64,000 nt of DNA. Source: Escherichia phage BAU.Micro_ELP-22. The notes under the pieces are model-generated. The model did not search any database, had not been told where the DNA came from, and worked only from the letters and a program-made list of their open reading frames with translations. Of this stretch, positions 44,417 through 50,928 are shown piece by piece. The first letter of the stretch is position 1. Each line of letters opens with the position of its first letter. The stretch lies in sequence record OR699282.2. One strand, given 5' to 3'. The translations under genes were made by a program, and so were the position numbers.

Positions 44417-45397
44417 ATGGCTAAAAAAATTAATGAAGCACAAGTTAAAATCGATATCGCAGGTTTAGAATCTGATGATTTGGAAACTCTATCACGTATG
44501 TTAGCTCTTGCTGGTCAAGCTGAACGTCAAGACCCAGTAGTTGCTGCTCCAGTACCATCTATGGGGTCTATGACTCCATCTCTTCCACCTATTGCTCCAC
44601 TAGATCTCGATTCTATTGGTGCTGAAGAAGAAATTGGTGGAATTGAAACTTCAGTTGAAGACCCACTAGCAGCGGCAGTTGATGATCTTTCCGCTGATGT
44701 TGGTGATTTTGGTGCTGACACAGATGAAGTTAGTATGGATGCTGAATTTTCAGAACCAGGTGTAGAAGGTGAAGAAGATTTTTCTCTTGACCTTAGTGGT
44801 CAACCTCAACTAGAATCAGTTGAAGAAGACGATGAGGAAGAAGAGGAAATTATTGAAGAAGAATTCGATTTTAGTCGTATGCTATCCCTTGCTGGTATTA
44901 ACGAAGAAGAAGACGAAGATTTTTCCGTAGAGGGTAATCCTGCTACCGATAAAGAAATGAAAGATACCCAATTTCTACCAGATCTAAGTATCTCTGAAGA
45001 TGAAGAACCATCTAACAGTACTGATTATGGTCCATATGAAACAGAAGCTGATGCCGTTCGTGATGGTCAACTAAAGACTAATGGTGTTGAAGGTGACCAT
45101 TTTGTTGTAATTGCAAAAGGCAATCAATTTTATTGGAGACGTGTTGTAGATGAAGATCTTGACAATCGTCCAGAACCTGAGTATTATGATAATGAAGGGA
45201 ACGAAAATCGTGTTCATAAATTTGAACCAAAATTCCCAGGCACTGCATTAGGAGATAACCCACTAAATGTTAATGAAAGTGAAGAAGATGATTCACCTGA
45301 AGGTAACATTGACTTGGAAGATGATTCTGATGAAGAAGTAGAAGATATTTTTGAAAGTCTCCAAGAAAAATACAAGAAATTTTTAGGAGACAAATAA
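44417..45397 (+). CDS. highly acidic protein (326 aa) with internal repeat
   Basis: Asp/Glu runs (EEDDEEEEEIIEEEFDF) and a repeated LSRMLALAGQAERQD / FSRMLSLAGINEEED motif. Confidence 0.5.
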   Translation: MAKKINEAQVKIDIAGLESDDLETLSRMLALAGQAERQDPVVAAPVPSMGSMTPSLPPIAPLDLDSIGAEEEIGGIETSVEDPLAAAVDDLSADVGDFGADTDEVSMDAEFSEPGVEGEEDFSLDLSGQPQLESVEEDDEEEEEIIEEEFDFSRMLSLAGINEEEDEDFSVEGNPATDKEMKDTQFLPDLSISEDEEPSNSTDYGPYETEADAVRDGQLKTNGVEGDHFVVIAKGNQFYWRRVVDEDLDNRPEPEYYDNEGNENRVHKFEPKFPGTALGDNPLNVNESEEDDSPEGNIDLEDDSDEEVEDIFESLQEKYKKFLGDK

Positions 45398-45398
45398 T

Positions 45399-45794
45399 AT
45401 GCAATATAATTATCGTGAACTAGTTGAAGCGTTAGACGAAATTACCGGAAGAGATGAAGACGAAAGTTTTTCAGTTGAAGTTGAATCCGATGTTGTAGCA
45501 GTTGATGTTCTTAAGGATATTACCAAATGTCTTATTGATATTGTTGATAAGATTAAATCTGGTGAAGACCAAAAAGAAATTGTAGATAAACTACAAAAAG
45601 CCTGTGACATTTTGTCTGACATTCGATATAATGATGAAAGTACTGAAGTTGCTGATGAAGAAGTGTTGGAAGCCATTGCAGGTTGTTTTGGAACTGAAGG
45701 TATGGGACCAACAATTGACAAAGAAGGCGTACAACACTATAATGAGCCTGGTGCACCATCTTATGCTGCACGTCAAGGTTTTGTTGGAGACTAA
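45399..45794 (+). CDS. hypothetical acidic protein (131 aa)
   Basis: ORF coupled to upstream stop. Confidence 0.45.
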   Translation: MQYNYRELVEALDEITGRDEDESFSVEVESDVVAVDVLKDITKCLIDIVDKIKSGEDQKEIVDKLQKACDILSDIRYNDESTEVADEEVLEAIAGCFGTEGMGPTIDKEGVQHYNEPGAPSYAARQGFVGD

Positions 45795-45797
45795 TAT

Positions 45798-46178
45798 ATG
45801 TTTCCAGAACCATCACATAACAGTACTGAATATCAAAATAATGTACTTTCCAAAGTTAGGGAAGTACATGAATCAGATTCAGAAATAACAGACCGTATGC
45901 TTCTGATGTCAATTTTTGAAAATTTCAGAACTGGCGGTGGTTTACGTCTTAGCAAGTTTGGGTATGGAATTTGTAAAGAAAATAATCTTTATGAATTTAC
46001 AAAAATCCCCTTGCAAAGAGAATTTAAAAGTTCTATAATGTTTACATCACTTGACAGAATATGTACTTCACCTTATTATGTTGAAGGTCAGTACATATAT
46101 CTGACAGATGCAATGATAATAACTGAATTAACATTGTGTTGTGATGATTTTAAACAGTTATTTTCTATTCATATGTAA
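45798..46178 (+). CDS. hypothetical protein (126 aa)
   Basis: ORF; no motif. Confidence 0.4.
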   Translation: MFPEPSHNSTEYQNNVLSKVREVHESDSEITDRMLLMSIFENFRTGGGLRLSKFGYGICKENNLYEFTKIPLQREFKSSIMFTSLDRICTSPYYVEGQYIYLTDAMIITELTLCCDDFKQLFSIHM

Positions 46179-46201
46179 GAAAAATGAATTAAAAATAAAT
46201 G

Positions 46202-46229
46202 TTGACAAGATAGAATGATGTGATACAAT
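46202..46229 (+). promoter_or_regulatory. consensus sigma70-type promoter P1 (TTGACA-16-TGaTACAAT)
   Basis: Exact -35, 16-nt spacer, TACAAT with upstream TG. Confidence 0.55.
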
Positions 46230-46295
46230 AAGCATCAGACATAAAGTTTTCAAGCGACACAAGATGTGAGTTTGAAAAAAAAAGAAAAAAAGTGA

Positions 46296-46323
46296 TTGAC
46301 AAGTTGAAACGATGTGATATAAT
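46296..46323 (+). promoter_or_regulatory. consensus sigma70-type promoter P2 (TTGACA-16-TGaTATAAT)
   Basis: Near-duplicate of P1 (TTGACAAG...GATGTGATATAAT) 94 nt downstream. Confidence 0.55.
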
Positions 46324-46492
46324 GTTCACATCAAGACAGCAAAGAGATTTACCTTTTAAACACACGGATGATTCATGAAGTAACAAAGGAACTGATAAGT
46401 TAAATTATTTTAACACAGTTCCTTTACTTTTGCCCACGGATTGGCTATAATAGAAACTTAAACGATTTTATCCAACAAAAGGAAATATATAC

Positions 46493-47818
46493 ATGACTAC
46501 TCAAAACGATATCCTGAACGTTAAACTGACTCCAAAGAAAGCTAAAGAAGCAATGGCACTAGCTGACATGATTCAAGATAGCCTGATGATTTGGGGTAGC
46601 CCAGGTATCGGTAAGTCTGCAATCGCTCGTCAATACGCTGATGAAAATTACCCACTGCGTAAAGATAACGTAGCTAAAATCGAGTTCATGAAACAACAAA
46701 TCGAAGCTGACCCTGAAAATGCTGATCAGCTACGTCGTGAACTGGCTGCATTTGAAGCAAAACTAATCGACCAAGATACTAACTTTATCGATTTCCGTTT
46801 GTCTCAAATCGAACCAAGTGACCTTCGCGGTATTCCAGTACCAGAGAAGCTTTTCCGTAAAACTGACGGTTCTCTTCTGAAAGAATCTGAGCTTGCCGAA
46901 GCAAAAGATTATGTAGCTGAAACTGCGGTAGTATGGGCTGCACCTAAAGTTCTGAAATTGTCCGAAGATTGGAAAGGTGTTATTCTGTTTGACGAAATTA
47001 ACTCTGCAATGCCTATTGTTCAGGCAGCGTCTTATCAGCTAATCCTCGACCGTTGTGTTGGTGAGATGAAGCTACCTAAGACTGCACTGATTCTTGCAGC
47101 AGGTAACCGTGAAACTGATGGCGGTGTAACTTTCTCTCTTGCTACACCACTGCGTGACCGTATGACTCACATTGAGATGATTCCTTATCATCAAGATTGG
47201 ATTAACGATTATGCGATTGCAAAACGTTTGAACCCAGCAACTGTTGCGTTCATCAACAACACTGGTTCTAAGTACTTTAACACACTTAGTCCACAAGATC
47301 CTTCTCACAGTGGTGGTACTTCTCCACGTTCATGGGAAGCAGTAGCACGCTACGAAGATCTCAAGAAAACTAAGACAATTGATAAAGAAGTGTTCCGTGC
47401 AATGATTGCTGGTCGTGTTGGTGAAGGTGTTGCAACTGAATACATTGAGTACGTTGAGAACGTTGCTAAACTACCAGATACTATGTCTATTCTGTCTGGT
47501 GAAATCAAAGAAATCGACGCAACGCTGGATATTTCTGCGAACTACTTTATCACTCTGAACTTGGTTTATAAAATTATCGACCTGTTCAATGAGAAGCAAG
47601 AACAACGTCTACCAGTGGAAGAATGGGGTAAACTGTGTAACAACTTCATCACCTTCCTAGACCATAACTTCTCTGCAACTCAAGCAGAACTGGCAGTACT
47701 GGCAATTCGTACCATCACGCTTCATAAGGTTGCGATTTCCATTAAAGATGTACCAGCGTTTAAAGATTTCATCGCTAAGTACTCTGATCTTGTACGTAAA
47801 GCACGCTCTCTTGGCTAA
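46493..47818 (+). CDS. AAA+ ATPase, MoxR/CobS-like (441 aa)
   Basis: Walker A MIWGSPGIGKSAIARQY and Walker B VILFDEINSA; codon choice (ctg, cgt, ggt, atc, ttc, aaa) differs visibly from neighbours. Confidence 0.7.
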   Translation: MTTQNDILNVKLTPKKAKEAMALADMIQDSLMIWGSPGIGKSAIARQYADENYPLRKDNVAKIEFMKQQIEADPENADQLRRELAAFEAKLIDQDTNFIDFRLSQIEPSDLRGIPVPEKLFRKTDGSLLKESELAEAKDYVAETAVVWAAPKVLKLSEDWKGVILFDEINSAMPIVQAASYQLILDRCVGEMKLPKTALILAAGNRETDGGVTFSLATPLRDRMTHIEMIPYHQDWINDYAIAKRLNPATVAFINNTGSKYFNTLSPQDPSHSGGTSPRSWEAVARYEDLKKTKTIDKEVFRAMIAGRVGEGVATEYIEYVENVAKLPDTMSILSGEIKEIDATLDISANYFITLNLVYKIIDLFNEKQEQRLPVEEWGKLCNNFITFLDHNFSATQAELAVLAIRTITLHKVAISIKDVPAFKDFIAKYSDLVRKARSLG

Positions 47819-47839
47819 TTAACAAAGAGTTGTTGACAA

Positions 47840-47868
47840 GAAGGATGCCTAATGGTATCCTTCTTTTA
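47840..47868 (+). terminator. intrinsic terminator (gaaggatgcc-taat-ggtatccttc + T-run)
   Basis: 10-bp stem with one G-U pair plus TTTTATC. Confidence 0.5.
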
Positions 47869-47892
47869 TCTTAACTAAACGAGGAAATATAC

Positions 47893-49317
47893 ATGTCAGA
47901 TAACAAATCTACTTCAAGATTCAATGAAGTATCTCCGGCACTCCAGAAAGAATGTCAAGAACGTCTGGTTCTGGCTCGTACATCTTTGATGTTAACTGCA
48001 CCATTCTTTGGTGTACTCGCTTCACGTTTACGTCCAGTTCCTAATAATACATGGTGTCGTACTCTAGCAGTGGATGGTAAACATCTATTCTACAACGTAG
48101 AATTTGTAATGGGCATTCAAGACCCATCTAAAAAGAAAGAATATGAAGAAGCTATTCGTGAAAAGCACCCTGAAGTTACAGACGAACAATTAAAAGAAAT
48201 GACTGAAGGTTTGACTGATGAAAACCTTGTTGCTGTAATTTGTCATGAAATTCTACACTGTGCTTACGATCACTTCCTTCGTCGTGGTATGCGTGATCCG
48301 CAACGTTATAACCGTGCAGCGGATTATGCCATTAACCAAATCATCGTTCGTGAGAAAATTGGAAAAATCCAAAGTTCATGGTTGTATGATAAAAAATATG
48401 AAGGTATGACCGCAGAAGAGATTTACATTCTTCTTGAAGAAGAAGAACAAAAAGAAGATGGTGAAGGTGAAGGTCAACCACAAAGTGGTGGTGGCGAAGG
48501 TGAAGGTAAAAATCGCGGTACTTTTGGCGATATTAAAGATGGTAAGGGTAAACCAAAAGGTACTACCATTGACCAGCATGACGTTCCACAAGAAGGTCAA
48601 GAGGGTGGTTCAAGTGAACAGCAAAAACGTGATTACATGGATGATTTCAAAACAGCAATGATGAATGCTGCTCGTGCAGGTGGTACACCAGCAGAAATCG
48701 CTCGTATGATTAACAACTTTAAAGAACCAAAGATTGACTGGCGTTCAAAACTTCAACGTACACTTCGTAGTTGGTTGAAGTCTGATGCAACATATCAAAA
48801 TCCGAATCGTCGTTCTTGGGGTGCAGGTTTTGGTTCTAATGGTTCATTCTATGGTAATCCAATTTACCCAGGGATGAAACCAGATGATGATATTGATATT
48901 GCGATTGCACTAGATGCTTCTGGGTCTATTTCTGAAGATATGCTTCGTGATTTCATTAGTGAAGTTCTTGGCATCACTAAACAATTCAAACAGTTTAAGA
49001 TTCGTATCATGACTTTTGATACTGAAGTTTATACTGTAAAGGATTACAAAACTGGCGAAGAACGTAAGATTCTGGAATATCCAGTAAAAGGTGGTGGTGG
49101 TACTGACTTTGAAGCAGTATGGGTTCATATGAAGAACGACAACTACAAGCCTAAACAGCTTGTAATGTTTACTGATGGTGAACCGTGGCAGTCATGGGGT
49201 GATCCAAACTACTGTAAAACACTGTTCGTGATTCACAGTAACCCAAATAAAGTTGCACCATTTGGTGAGACTGTACACTACGAATATGAAGCTGATAAAA
49301 AGCGTCAACGTAGTTAA
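47893..49317 (+). CDS. vWA-domain protein with N-terminal HExxH putative metallopeptidase-like domain (DUF2201-type partner of MoxR ATPases)
   Basis: ICHEILHCAYDH (HExxH) in the N-terminal half, Gly/Glu-rich linker, then vWA MIDAS-like DIAIALDASGSIS and ...MFTDGEP. Confidence 0.6.
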   Translation: MSDNKSTSRFNEVSPALQKECQERLVLARTSLMLTAPFFGVLASRLRPVPNNTWCRTLAVDGKHLFYNVEFVMGIQDPSKKKEYEEAIREKHPEVTDEQLKEMTEGLTDENLVAVICHEILHCAYDHFLRRGMRDPQRYNRAADYAINQIIVREKIGKIQSSWLYDKKYEGMTAEEIYILLEEEEQKEDGEGEGQPQSGGGEGEGKNRGTFGDIKDGKGKPKGTTIDQHDVPQEGQEGGSSEQQKRDYMDDFKTAMMNAARAGGTPAEIARMINNFKEPKIDWRSKLQRTLRSWLKSDATYQNPNRRSWGAGFGSNGSFYGNPIYPGMKPDDDIDIAIALDASGSISEDMLRDFISEVLGITKQFKQFKIRIMTFDTEVYTVKDYKTGEERKILEYPVKGGGGTDFEAVWVHMKNDNYKPKQLVMFTDGEPWQSWGDPNYCKTLFVIHSNPNKVAPFGETVHYEYEADKKRQRS

Positions 49318-49330
49318 GTACTAAATAATG

Positions 49331-49358
49331 AGAACGGAATTTTCCGTTCTCTTCTTTT
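49331..49358 (+). terminator. intrinsic terminator (agaacgg-aatttt-ccgttct + T-rich)
   Basis: 7-bp perfect stem plus CTTCTTTTAT. Confidence 0.55.
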
Positions 49359-49364
49359 ATAAGT

Positions 49365-49392
49365 GGGACAACTTATAAAAATATGATATAAT
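49365..49392 (+). promoter_or_regulatory. promoter, gtGGGACA-n16-TGATATAAT class
   Basis: Same architecture as the sites at 19256 and 30352. Confidence 0.4.
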
Positions 49393-49426
49393 AGTTAATG
49401 TACCAATATACATGGAGAGTATTAAA

Positions 49427-49672
49427 ATGGAACAAGAAAATAATCAAATTCAACTAACCCTTCTAGACCTAATCAATGCTGCAAAAATCATGGAAGCTGC
49501 TGTTGCACGAAACACCTTTAAAGTTGAAGAACTTGTCGAGGTTGCTCCAGTTGTATCTAAATTTGTTTCTTTTGCAAATGTCGCTCTTGAAGATATTAAA
49601 GCACAAGAAGATGCAGCTAAAGAAGAAGCTGAATCACAAGATAGTGAAACTCAAGAAGATAAAGGAGAATAA
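49427..49672 (+). CDS. small acidic protein (about 81 aa)
   Basis: Start moved to the Met with GGAGAG RBS (ORF track 49412). Confidence 0.45.
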   Translation: MEQENNQIQLTLLDLINAAKIMEAAVARNTFKVEELVEVAPVVSKFVSFANVALEDIKAQEDAAKEEAESQDSETQEDKGE

Positions 49673-49674
49673 TT

Positions 49675-50331
49675 ATGGCAGCTATTCGTCATGTTGGTGT
49701 AATGCGTAATACAGGTTCTCGTGTTTTTGTTGTTTGGCGTTCACTACCAGATGATCCTGAACACTGCCTTATCGTTTATCGTGATTCACTACCAGAAGCA
49801 TATGTTCACGCAGTAACTGATATTGTTATGGGTCATGGTCAATCTAATATTGATTTGTGGGAAGTAATGCATAAAATTGGTTATCTCGATGGACGCAAAA
49901 TGCTAGATGTTCTACACAACATGCAGCATCTACGTCGCGTTCGTACTTGTGACATTGATATGCACACTGGTGGTAATAATAAAATTTCTCTTGATGTTCT
50001 AAACAAAGCATTAGATGAGAATCAAGCGAAAGTACAAGAAGATGGTAAAGTAAAAGACTTTAACCCATTCAATCCACAAGAAGCAGACACTAAAGTAGAA
50101 GAAGCTACTATTGTAGAAAAACTTCTCTCTGATGCACAAAAATTTGAACAACTGGCTAAAGAACATTATGAACGTGCATACAATTTAGAGCCAAGCTTGC
50201 GTCCGCAAACACAAGTTGTTGAACAACCGAAAGATAGTAAAACAATTTATCTAGAAATTCCAGAAGGTATTTCACAGACTAAAGCTATTGAGAAAGTAAA
50301 ACAACTATTTGCAGAACGTAAAGCAAAATAA
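49675..50331 (+). CDS. hypothetical protein (218 aa)
   Basis: ORF coupled to upstream stop; no motif. Confidence 0.45.
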   Translation: MAAIRHVGVMRNTGSRVFVVWRSLPDDPEHCLIVYRDSLPEAYVHAVTDIVMGHGQSNIDLWEVMHKIGYLDGRKMLDVLHNMQHLRRVRTCDIDMHTGGNNKISLDVLNKALDENQAKVQEDGKVKDFNPFNPQEADTKVEEATIVEKLLSDAQKFEQLAKEHYERAYNLEPSLRPQTQVVEQPKDSKTIYLEIPEGISQTKAIEKVKQLFAERKAK

Positions 50332-50334
50332 AAT

Positions 50335-50928
50335 ATGAAAAAGAATGAATTAGATGAAGCAATTAAAGGTTTATCTAATGTATGTTTTAGTGGCGGGGCA
50401 GCAGGTGCTGACCGCCTTTTTTCTATCTATGCAAAAAATAATGGATTTGAAGTTATTAATTTTTCATTCAAAGGTCATGAGCATAGTGTAGATGAAAGTA
50501 CTATATTAGAAATACCATCCAATATTCTATCTGATATTTCTATATTAAATCAACTAAACATTGCATGTTACTCGTTGCAGCGAAAAGTGCCAAAGCCTGG
50601 TTCTTATGTTTACAACTTACTTGCAAGGAATAGTTATCAGATACTTAATACAGAAAGAATATATTGTATTGCAAATATCACATCACCAACTAAGGTAAGT
50701 GGTGGTACTGCATGGGCAGTACAGATGTATATGGATTCAGTTGAAAATCCTGAAATTTATTGTTATGATATGAATTCACGTTCAGTATTTTATTTCGATA
50801 CAGTACTGAAAGAGTTCACACAAACATTCGTCGTTCCAGCACCACATGGTAACTGGACTGGTATTGGTTCACGCAATGCCACAGAAAAACATATGGAACA
50901 TTTTATTACATTTTTCAAGGAAGAATAA
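50335..50928 (+). CDS. Rossmann-like protein with glycine-rich loop (SLOG/LOG/DprA-like)
   Basis: VCFSGGAAGADRLFS near the N-terminus resembles the phosphate-binding loop of SLOG-type domains; weak. Confidence 0.25.
   Translation: MKKNELDEAIKGLSNVCFSGGAAGADRLFSIYAKNNGFEVINFSFKGHEHSVDESTILEIPSNILSDISILNQLNIACYSLQRKVPKPGSYVYNLLARNSYQILNTERIYCIANITSPTKVSGGTAWAVQMYMDSVENPEIYCYDMNSRSVFYFDTVLKEFTQTFVVPAPHGNWTGIGSRNATEKHMEHFITFFKEE

Follow-up and report, generated by a model that had tools for sequence, protein, structure and literature searches.

The 64,000-nt stretch of DNA analyzed here (the window; record OR699282.2, Escherichia phage BAU.Micro_ELP-22) encodes, at positions 46493-49317, a MoxR-class AAA+ ATPase and a second protein in which an N-terminal zincin-like putative metallopeptidase domain is joined to a C-terminal von Willebrand factor A (vWA) domain. 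Both are homologous to proteins of phage N4 (gp24 and gp25), and together they form a genuine module whose genes stay closely linked in many phages and bacteria. We favor, with moderate confidence, a reading in which the pair is a two-component, ATP-driven MoxR-vWA machine, orthologous to N4 gp24/gp25, tuned by a hairpin between its genes, made early or in the middle of infection and acting on an intracellular client. The pair is already known as a published prediction, under N4 gp24/gp25 and in Iyer et al. (2021), and the finding is therefore not new; the small new leads added here are a conserved hairpin that is a putative attenuator, an extended synteny and inteins at the presumed active site.

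The window derives from an Asteriusvirus jumbo phage of E. coli: over 46493-49317, identity reaches 99.9% with vB_Eco_slurp01 and 99.2-99.7% with PBECO4, 121Q and their relatives. The counterparts in 121Q are gene 563 ("ATPase") and gene 564 ("Zn-dependent hydrolase"), which are preceded by a block of structural genes annotated by mass spectrometry and have a thymidylate synthase gene downstream; genes 563 and 564 are themselves without structural annotation, and neighboring genes carry it. In the window, the ATPase open reading frame matches phrog_1297 (E-value 2.9e-107) and, after a spacer of 74 nt, that of the vWA protein matches phrog_1314 (E-value 6.7e-128). Both reading frames lie exactly where the first-pass annotation, made from the letters alone, had drawn them, and every detail it had listed (Walker A and B, HEILH, a Gly/Glu-rich linker, a DASGS-type metal-ion-dependent adhesion site or MIDAS, and an intergenic hairpin) was recovered (Table 1). 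Judged from the alignments, these motifs are beyond chance, as they are located in invariant columns.

Linkage and distribution of the pair

To collect related loci, we used an alignment of the vWA protein, which yielded 45 loci from one-genome-per-species bacterial and archaeal contigs and 80 from IMG/VR. A homologue of the window ATPase was found on the same strand in 120 of 126 vWA-protein loci, so that the linkage expected at first pass holds in viral and bacterial collections alike, and we reject the idea that the two genes adjoin by chance. Among the six exceptions, five have a contig end upstream, and in the sixth (L036) the ATPase was not found in 4.7 kb of upstream DNA. The ATPase gene is the adjoining upstream gene in 79 of the 111 loci scored. 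Among other settings, the N4-like phage G7C has an insertion (gp24, an HNH insert named gp24.1, then gp25), and in the rV5-like phage RudolfGeigy the genes are 3.6 kb apart.

The vWA protein was detected in 684 phage records (tblastn), and when 1.84 billion representative proteins were searched with a profile, 6,462 clusters (50% identity) reached E-value ≤ 1e-30. Overall, the module is common to N4-like podoviruses, to rV5-like, Rak2-like and marine T4-like myoviruses, and to bacterial chromosomes, including a plain two-gene operon in a Saccharibacteria genome and in a deltaproteobacterium. It is also found with a ligase and a beta clamp on a Rhizobiales element: across these Rhizobiales loci (L018-L028, of which L021 is Pseudochrobactrum), one to three small genes separate the ATPase and vWA genes, and the pair lies beside DUF3150, an ATP-dependent DNA ligase and a beta sliding clamp. 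This context is suggestive of a mobile element or of a prophage-like replication module.

The zincin-like/vWA protein

Profile searches place the second protein in DUF2201_N (PF13203, "Putative metallopeptidase domain"; E-value 2e-35, 123.2 bits vs. a cut-off of 23.2), followed C-terminally by the vWA-like DUF2201 (PF09967; E-value 6.9e-21, 75.1 bits vs. 26.4), in agreement with the peptidase-like and vWA parts first proposed. Among the homologues listed, PF13203 was present in 120 of 120 and PF09967 also in 119. Across 16 sequences with identities down to 42%, H118, E119, H122 and H127 of the N-domain and D341, S343, G344, S345, T404 and D428 of the vWA domain are invariant, and the protein thus has a complete MIDAS (D341-x-S343-G-S345, T404, D428) on a vWA fold. 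When bacterial members are added to the N-domain alignment, the H, E and H of HExxH remain invariant together with H127, D144, E175 and Y178.

The AlphaFold model (overall predicted local distance difference test, pLDDT, of 72) suggests that an N-domain of helices and beta strands (residues 15-190) is followed by a disordered Gly/Glu/Lys loop (190-240), by helices 242-296 which still fall within the Pfam peptidase model, and, after a second disordered linker, by a compact vWA domain (334-465). HEILH is predicted to lie in a helix (109-128) with strands at 47-67 upstream of it, and the first linker (186-240), with 16 Gly, 7 Glu, 5 Asp, 6 Lys and 6 Gln among its 55 residues, is predicted to be disordered (pLDDT 30-54). 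Against the PDB, a profile of the N-domain matched an M48 peptidase (3c37, E-value 1e-4) and the minigluzincin MJ1213 (3e-4), followed by BepA, HtpX and Ste24, and Pfam Peptidase_M48 was matched individually by 16 of 21 family members. The whole vWA-protein profile gave no PDB match, the N-domain profile and the ATPase profile being the informative ones, and single-sequence PDB searches with either protein returned nothing significant. Taken together, the conserved motifs predict a protease activity for the vWA protein.

Inteins interrupt DUF2201_N at two independent sites in three family members (P0289; L040 and P0295). In P0289, the intein is inserted between HExxH and the next Cys (HEVLH|C...HN|CVYEH), and in L040 (4573-6900) and P0295 it lies directly before the invariant Asp (WNxA|C...HN|CDY); the inserts consist of Intein_splicing/Hint and LAGLIDADG domains. 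Inteins favor functionally critical motifs, and their location here in the most conserved motifs of the domain thus supports a functional active site. Their position further suggests that D144 may be part of it. These insertion sites in the zincin domain are new in this analysis.

Among the distant homologues, four loci from Firmicutes metagenome-assembled genomes (L043-L046) have the ATPase gene downstream, i.e., in reversed order, and an HxxxH motif without the catalytic Glu (HMLFH, HITMH, HVLLH and HVTLH), and another (L030) has lost the first His of the motif; these are probably pseudo-peptidase versions, as judged from their motifs.

The AAA+ ATPase

Seven ATPase residues (G38, K41, S42, E168, N205, R223 and R279) are invariant across 24 ATPases with identities down to 32%, and G35 and D167 are conserved in at least 90% of them. 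The sequence also has a conserved DxRL...DxxGxP motif and two clade-specific insertions (residues ~55-97 and ~118-146), which disrupt the profile alignment. Because the window ATPase alone barely reaches the Pfam thresholds, its MoxR membership rests on family-level transitivity and fold. Shorter homologues (~360 aa, E-value 1e-43 to 1e-50) match AAA_3, AAA_5 and bpMoxR, the window protein matches G7C gp24 (E-value 7e-25), and the family profile matches the midasin AAA ring in the PDB (4e-17). Structures of the MoxR clade, CbbQ and NorQ, resemble the structural model (pLDDT 83) most, with NorQ as top Foldseek match. As regards a helix-2 insert and a pre-sensor-1 hairpin, the model places two additional strands (115-123 and 140-148) after beta2 (98-102) and ahead of the strand that carries Walker B (163-167), and its pre-sensor-1 region (208-222) has pLDDT < 50.

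The conserved Walker A and B motifs, N205, R223 and the SPRSW arginine, together with the structural and profile matches, support a MoxR-class AAA+ assignment at the family level. Of the initial "MoxR/CobS-like" label, the MoxR part stands on family profiles and fold and the CobS part does not: CobS/CobT models had no Pfam match at E-value ≤ 0.1 in either protein or in the 24 ATPase homologues, and a cobaltochelatase identity is accordingly rejected. The Pfam CbbQ_C and ViaA models were also unmatched, and an NCBIfam scan had no match for either protein.

A hairpin kept between the two genes

The terminator-like hairpin between the two genes folds at -21.8 kcal/mol (z = -5.2), and none of 200 shuffles folded equally well. 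To evaluate its conservation, we compared ATPase-vWA spacers of at least 40 nt with other same-strand spacers of the same loci. A strict terminator rule found a hairpin in 44 of 66 ATPase-vWA spacers vs. 14 of 257 controls (Fisher p-value 1e-25), and a local fold energy of -12 kcal/mol or below was reached in 89% of 62 unique spacers vs. 13% of 201 controls (Mann-Whitney p-value 9e-24). The hairpin is kept in position, not in sequence, across divergent phages, and this positional conservation is new here. Most likely, it acts as a leaky terminator or as an mRNA 3' end or stabilizer, either of which would lower the output of the adaptor relative to that of the ATPase.

Upstream, near-consensus sigma70 promoters form a cluster that starts at ~45.7 kb, after the structural block, and exact TTGACA-N15-18-TATAAT sites number three in the 64 kb vs. 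0.23 expected; the promoter function of these sites is predicted from their consensus. No T4-type late promoter (TATAAATA) was found upstream of either gene. The two genes are probably transcribed from host-type promoters in early or middle infection. The late core itself occurs once in the whole window vs. 11.1 times expected from shuffles, a strong depletion for a T4-related phage.

The spacer ahead of the ATPase gene (46179-46492, 314 nt) is unusually long and contains two tandem, near-identical consensus promoters (TTGACAAG...GATGTGATA[C/T]AAT), then a 10-bp hairpin with a T-tail (~46385-46425), then a third promoter-like site, and this element could be a short leader or a small RNA. An Rfam scan of the whole window, including this spacer and the intercistronic hairpin, returned no known RNA family.

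Published record and annotation

N4 gp24 and gp25, an AAA ATPase and a vWFA protein, belong to the 14 genes that make up the N4-like core (PMC4193335; PMC2784036), and they are middle genes not listed among the virion proteins (PMC4193335). For jumbo phages of their group 2.2, which are T4-related and mostly infect gammaproteobacteria, Iyer et al. (2021, Viruses 13:63; PMC7824862) described a MoxR AAA+-vWA chaperone-cochaperone pair with a fused N-terminal metallopeptidase, and proposed a function in virion assembly and proteolytic processing by analogy with Acidianus two-tailed virus (section 3.4.5). The statement in the first-pass annotation that a role in phage infection is not established is right as to experiments, but the pair itself is already in the literature (PMC2784036; PMC4193335; PMC7824862).

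Database labels for the vWA gene are frequently misleading, as PHROG 1314 and many GenBank records call it "HNH endonuclease", "homing endonuclease" or "T4 gp25-like". A Pfam scan found no endonuclease domain in the window vWA protein, and the label lacks domain support. The endonuclease label plausibly stems from intein-bearing (LAGLIDADG) members or from inserted HNH genes such as G7C gp24.1, and "gp25-like" is probably a confusion of N4 gp25 with T4 gp25. Likewise, an rV5-like gene labeled "anti-sigma factor" beside the metallopeptidase is not an ATPase homologue, the true one lying 3.6 kb away. The present analysis corrects these widespread mis-annotations.

Proposed mechanism and biological role

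By analogy with characterized MoxR-vWA systems, the ATPase would form a hexameric ring holding a single zincin-vWA adaptor, docked through its C-terminal vWA domain in a "finger-in-pore" arrangement as in NorQ-NorD, CbbQ-CbbO and midasin. The client protein would be captured at the MIDAS metal site through an acidic residue; rotation or pulling powered by ATP would then lay open part of it, and the M48/minigluzincin-like zincin, tethered by two flexible linkers, would cleave the client or the exposed segment. The intercistronic hairpin would leave less adaptor than ATPase, in line with the several-to-one ratio of ring to adaptor in NorQ-NorD.

As to the client, the non-virion nature of the N4 products and the early or middle, host-type promoters point to an intracellular host or phage protein, e.g., in DNA metabolism or host takeover, rather than a virion component. 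The N4 middle class, the metabolism genes around the pair and the occurrence of a cellular module without virion context also speak for an intracellular role. Nucleotide- and DNA-metabolism neighbors recur in four lineages, for example ThyA and a SLOG/DprA-like protein in the window, dCTP deaminase and ThyX in G7C, and a 5'-3' exonuclease and a radical SAM protein in marine T4-like phages. An early or middle intracellular role is thus more likely than one in virion morphogenesis. It is tempting to go further and to see in the pair an early or middle MIDAS-guided protease or remodeler, core to N4-, rV5-, Rak2- and marine T4-like phages, in which the attenuator sets the ratio of the two proteins and the products of the small flanking genes up126, dn86 and dn218 are clients or regulators, but we put this fuller scheme forward as a tentative possibility.

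Several observations weigh against our interpretation. For the ATPase, the window sequence alone scores 21.3 bits with Pfam AAA vs. a cut-off of 21.2, and 16.7 vs. 27 with AAA_3. For the adaptor, the top 60 matches of the full-model fold search are all vWA domains; the third zinc ligand has candidates only (H127, D144 and E175, all invariant), in a region outside the aligned templates; and the loss of the catalytic Glu in some distant bacterial homologues (HMLFH and similar) implies that the domain can persist without peptidase chemistry. The early or middle timing is read from consensus promoters and from N4, shared descent, rather than function, may account for synteny inside one phage lineage, and a literature search on the family, including DUF2201, N4 CRISPRi-ART and sll7028/sll7029, returned no experimental work. 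Finally, the window pair directly follows a block of virion genes, and roseophage RPP1 has four genes for virion proteins close to its homologues of gp24/gp25 (PMC4193335), which fits the published virion-assembly proposal.

That proposal, in which the pair would assist head or tail assembly and the peptidase would process structural proteins, as Iyer et al. (2021; PMC7824862) suggested from the tail development of Acidianus two-tailed virus, is the foremost alternative, although we consider it rather improbable. Besides the two gene arrangements just mentioned, it can draw on G7C, which has gp17, a head-decoration gene, on the upstream side of gp24. However, N4 gp24/gp25 are middle and not late genes (PMC4193335), and host-type promoters precede the window genes. 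The module is moreover common to podoviruses and very different myoviruses, is found in bacterial chromosomes without any virion context, and has DNA- and nucleotide-metabolism neighbors in most lineages.

Several MoxR-vWA systems serve metal-cofactor insertion, NorQD for iron, CobST for cobalt and BchID for magnesium, with CoxDE acting likewise. The phage pair might by extension be a chaperone rather than a protease, opening a client metalloenzyme while a His/Asp/Glu-rich N-domain holds or delivers the metal. The nearest structural relatives of both parts (NorQ/NorD, CbbQ and BchI/BchD) and an order of N-domain, linker and vWA that parallels NorD (PMC13036017) would suit such a role, as would the recurrence of thymidylate synthase and other nucleotide-metabolism genes nearby and the distant homologues which keep both His without the catalytic Glu. 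Yet that Glu never varies within the phage clade and is kept by most bacterial members, and the homology of the N-domain to true peptidases (M48, minigluzincins) extends to the substrate-binding edge strand. No consistent client metalloenzyme accompanies the pair either, ThyA being within range in 15 loci only, and we regard this explanation as unlikely. Least probable of all, and in our view very unlikely, is a weapon of host takeover or counter-defence that destroys a specific host defence or stress factor: this would explain the spread of the pair among several unrelated lytic lineages and mobile-element-like bacterial regions, and it is in keeping with the predicted early or middle expression (PMC4193335) and with the presence of MoxR-vWA modules in conflict systems (PMC7159879), but PADLOC has no match for either protein, the pair is also an ordinary operon in bacterial chromosomes, and as a universal, highly conserved N4-like core pair across very different hosts (PMC4193335) it is unlike the fast-evolving and patchy anti-defence genes.

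Large virulent phages of several unrelated groups carry the pair, and the identity of its client would account for a function that is widespread and conserved among phages. The MoxR-vWA family, otherwise known mainly for metal insertion, would also gain a variant that bears a protease. N4, the rV5-like phages of the BASEL collection and Asteriusvirus infect E. coli K-12, and with several carriers growing on this host the question of function is genetically tractable.

Neighboring genes and sequence features

Around the pair, the T4-related lineage has a five-gene block (up126, ATPase, vWA, dn86, dn218), and this synteny is new here. In an iterated hidden Markov model search, 73 loci had up126, which never lies on the opposite strand and in most cases is two genes upstream of the vWA gene; dn86 (61 loci, +1 to +3) and dn218 (78 loci, mostly +1 to +5) follow the vWA gene on the same strand. 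A Pfam scan gave no match for any of the three. At a single metagenomic locus (L055, 3740-5059), a gene of the up126 family and the ATPase gene form one continuous reading frame (438 aa), a fusion which could be real or an assembly error.

Two further window proteins lie close to this block. The first (50335-50928, 197 aa), between the block and thymidylate synthase, has a weak SLOG/YAcAr match (Pfam, 5e-4) and matches PHROG 768, "DprA-like", at 1e-26. The second (44417-45397, 326 aa; phrog_15988) is an extremely acidic virion structural protein; its low-complexity sequence has long runs of Asp/Glu and no Pfam domain.

Table 1. Coordinates of the gene pair, its motifs and the surrounding features in the window (residue numbers refer to the respective protein).
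Feature	Position (nt)	Strand	Residues or remarks
sigma70-like promoter, 12/12	45715-45743	+	upstream of up126
up126 (phrog_15638)	45798..46178	+	126 aa; small gene upstream of ATPase
sigma70-type promoter, TG-extended, 11/12	46202-46229	+	upstream of ATPase; first of tandem
sigma70-type promoter, TG-extended, 12/12	46296-46323	+	upstream of ATPase; second of tandem
third, weaker promoter	46423-46451	+	upstream of ATPase
MoxR-class AAA+ ATPase gene	46493..47818	+	441 aa; N4 gp24 family; 121Q gene 563
Walker A, GSPGIGKS	46595-46618	+	35-42
Walker B, ILFDEIN	46982-47002	+	164-170
sensor-1, AAGNRE			202-207 (ATPase)
PLRDRM			219-224 (ATPase)
SPRSW			277-281 (ATPase)
promoter-like site, TTGACA / TG-n-TATCCT	47833 (TTGACA)	+	overlaps intercistronic hairpin
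intercistronic terminator-like hairpin	47838-47865	+	12-bp stem, 4-nt loop, then T-run (TTTTATCTT)
DUF2201_N zincin-like + DUF2201 vWA/MIDAS adaptor gene	47893..49317	+	474 aa; N4 gp25 family; 121Q gene 564
HEILH	48244-48258	+	118-122
HEILHCAYDH	48244-48273	+	
AADYAIN			142-148 (vWA protein)
disordered Gly/Glu/Lys linker	48448-48612	+	~186-240
second disordered linker			~295-331 (vWA protein)
vWA domain			334-465
DASGS	48913-48927		341-345
GGGGT			400-404
FTDGE			426-430
terminator-like hairpin	49330..49351	+	after vWA gene
promoter-like site	49365-49392		before next gene
dn86 (phrog_13789)	49412..49672	+	86 aa; acidic C-terminal tail
dn218 (phrog_15894)	49675..50331	+	218 aa

Comparison with known systems

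The closest published counterparts are N4 gp24/gp25, which are homologous to the window pair, linked in the same order and non-virion (PMC2784036; PMC4193335). Two differences stand out: the jumbo-phage ATPase has its two insertions, unlike N4 gp24, and the N4-like genes abut or are split by an HNH gene without an intercistronic hairpin, whereas the window pair has one. In G7C, the window vWA protein matches gp25, with only the C-terminal half of gp25 aligning (tblastn). The group 2.2 pair of Iyer et al. has the same architecture and comes from the same phage group, and is essentially the same finding; the examples given there (ASV44729.1/ASV44728.2) are from another phage and are likened to the window pair by description only. 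Acidianus two-tailed virus likewise encodes a MoxR-vWA pair (cited in PMC7824862), again likened by description, but this virus is archaeal, the partner lacks a peptidase domain and the proteins are reported with the virion tail.

Compared with peptidases, the window N-domain has in common with M48 enzymes and minigluzincins (HtpX, BepA, Ste24 and MJ1213 projannalysin) an edge beta-strand and the HExxH helix, a match of ~50-60 residues only (E-value ~1e-4) that leaves the third-ligand part unaligned. The vWA protein differs from M48 in being without membrane segments, fused to a vWA domain and split by a long disordered acidic loop.

Among cellular machines, NorQ-NorD, CbbQ-CbbO, RavA-ViaA, BchI-BchD/CobS-CobT and midasin are like the window pair in combining an AAA+ ATPase assigned to the helix-2-insert clade with a vWA partner whose MIDAS is intact, and NorQ/NorD, CbbQ, BchI/BchD and midasin are the top fold or profile matches to the window proteins. 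Cryo-electron microscopy of NorQD places a vWA finger in the AAA+ pore, with the MIDAS engaging acidic residues of the client, as in CbbQ-CbbO and midasin, and NorD resembles the window vWA protein in its layout (PMC13036017). The clients of these systems are cellular metalloenzymes or pre-ribosomes, and a zincin/HExxH domain, absent from NorD, CbbO, ViaA, BchD/CobT and the midasin partners, sets the window vWA protein apart from all of them.

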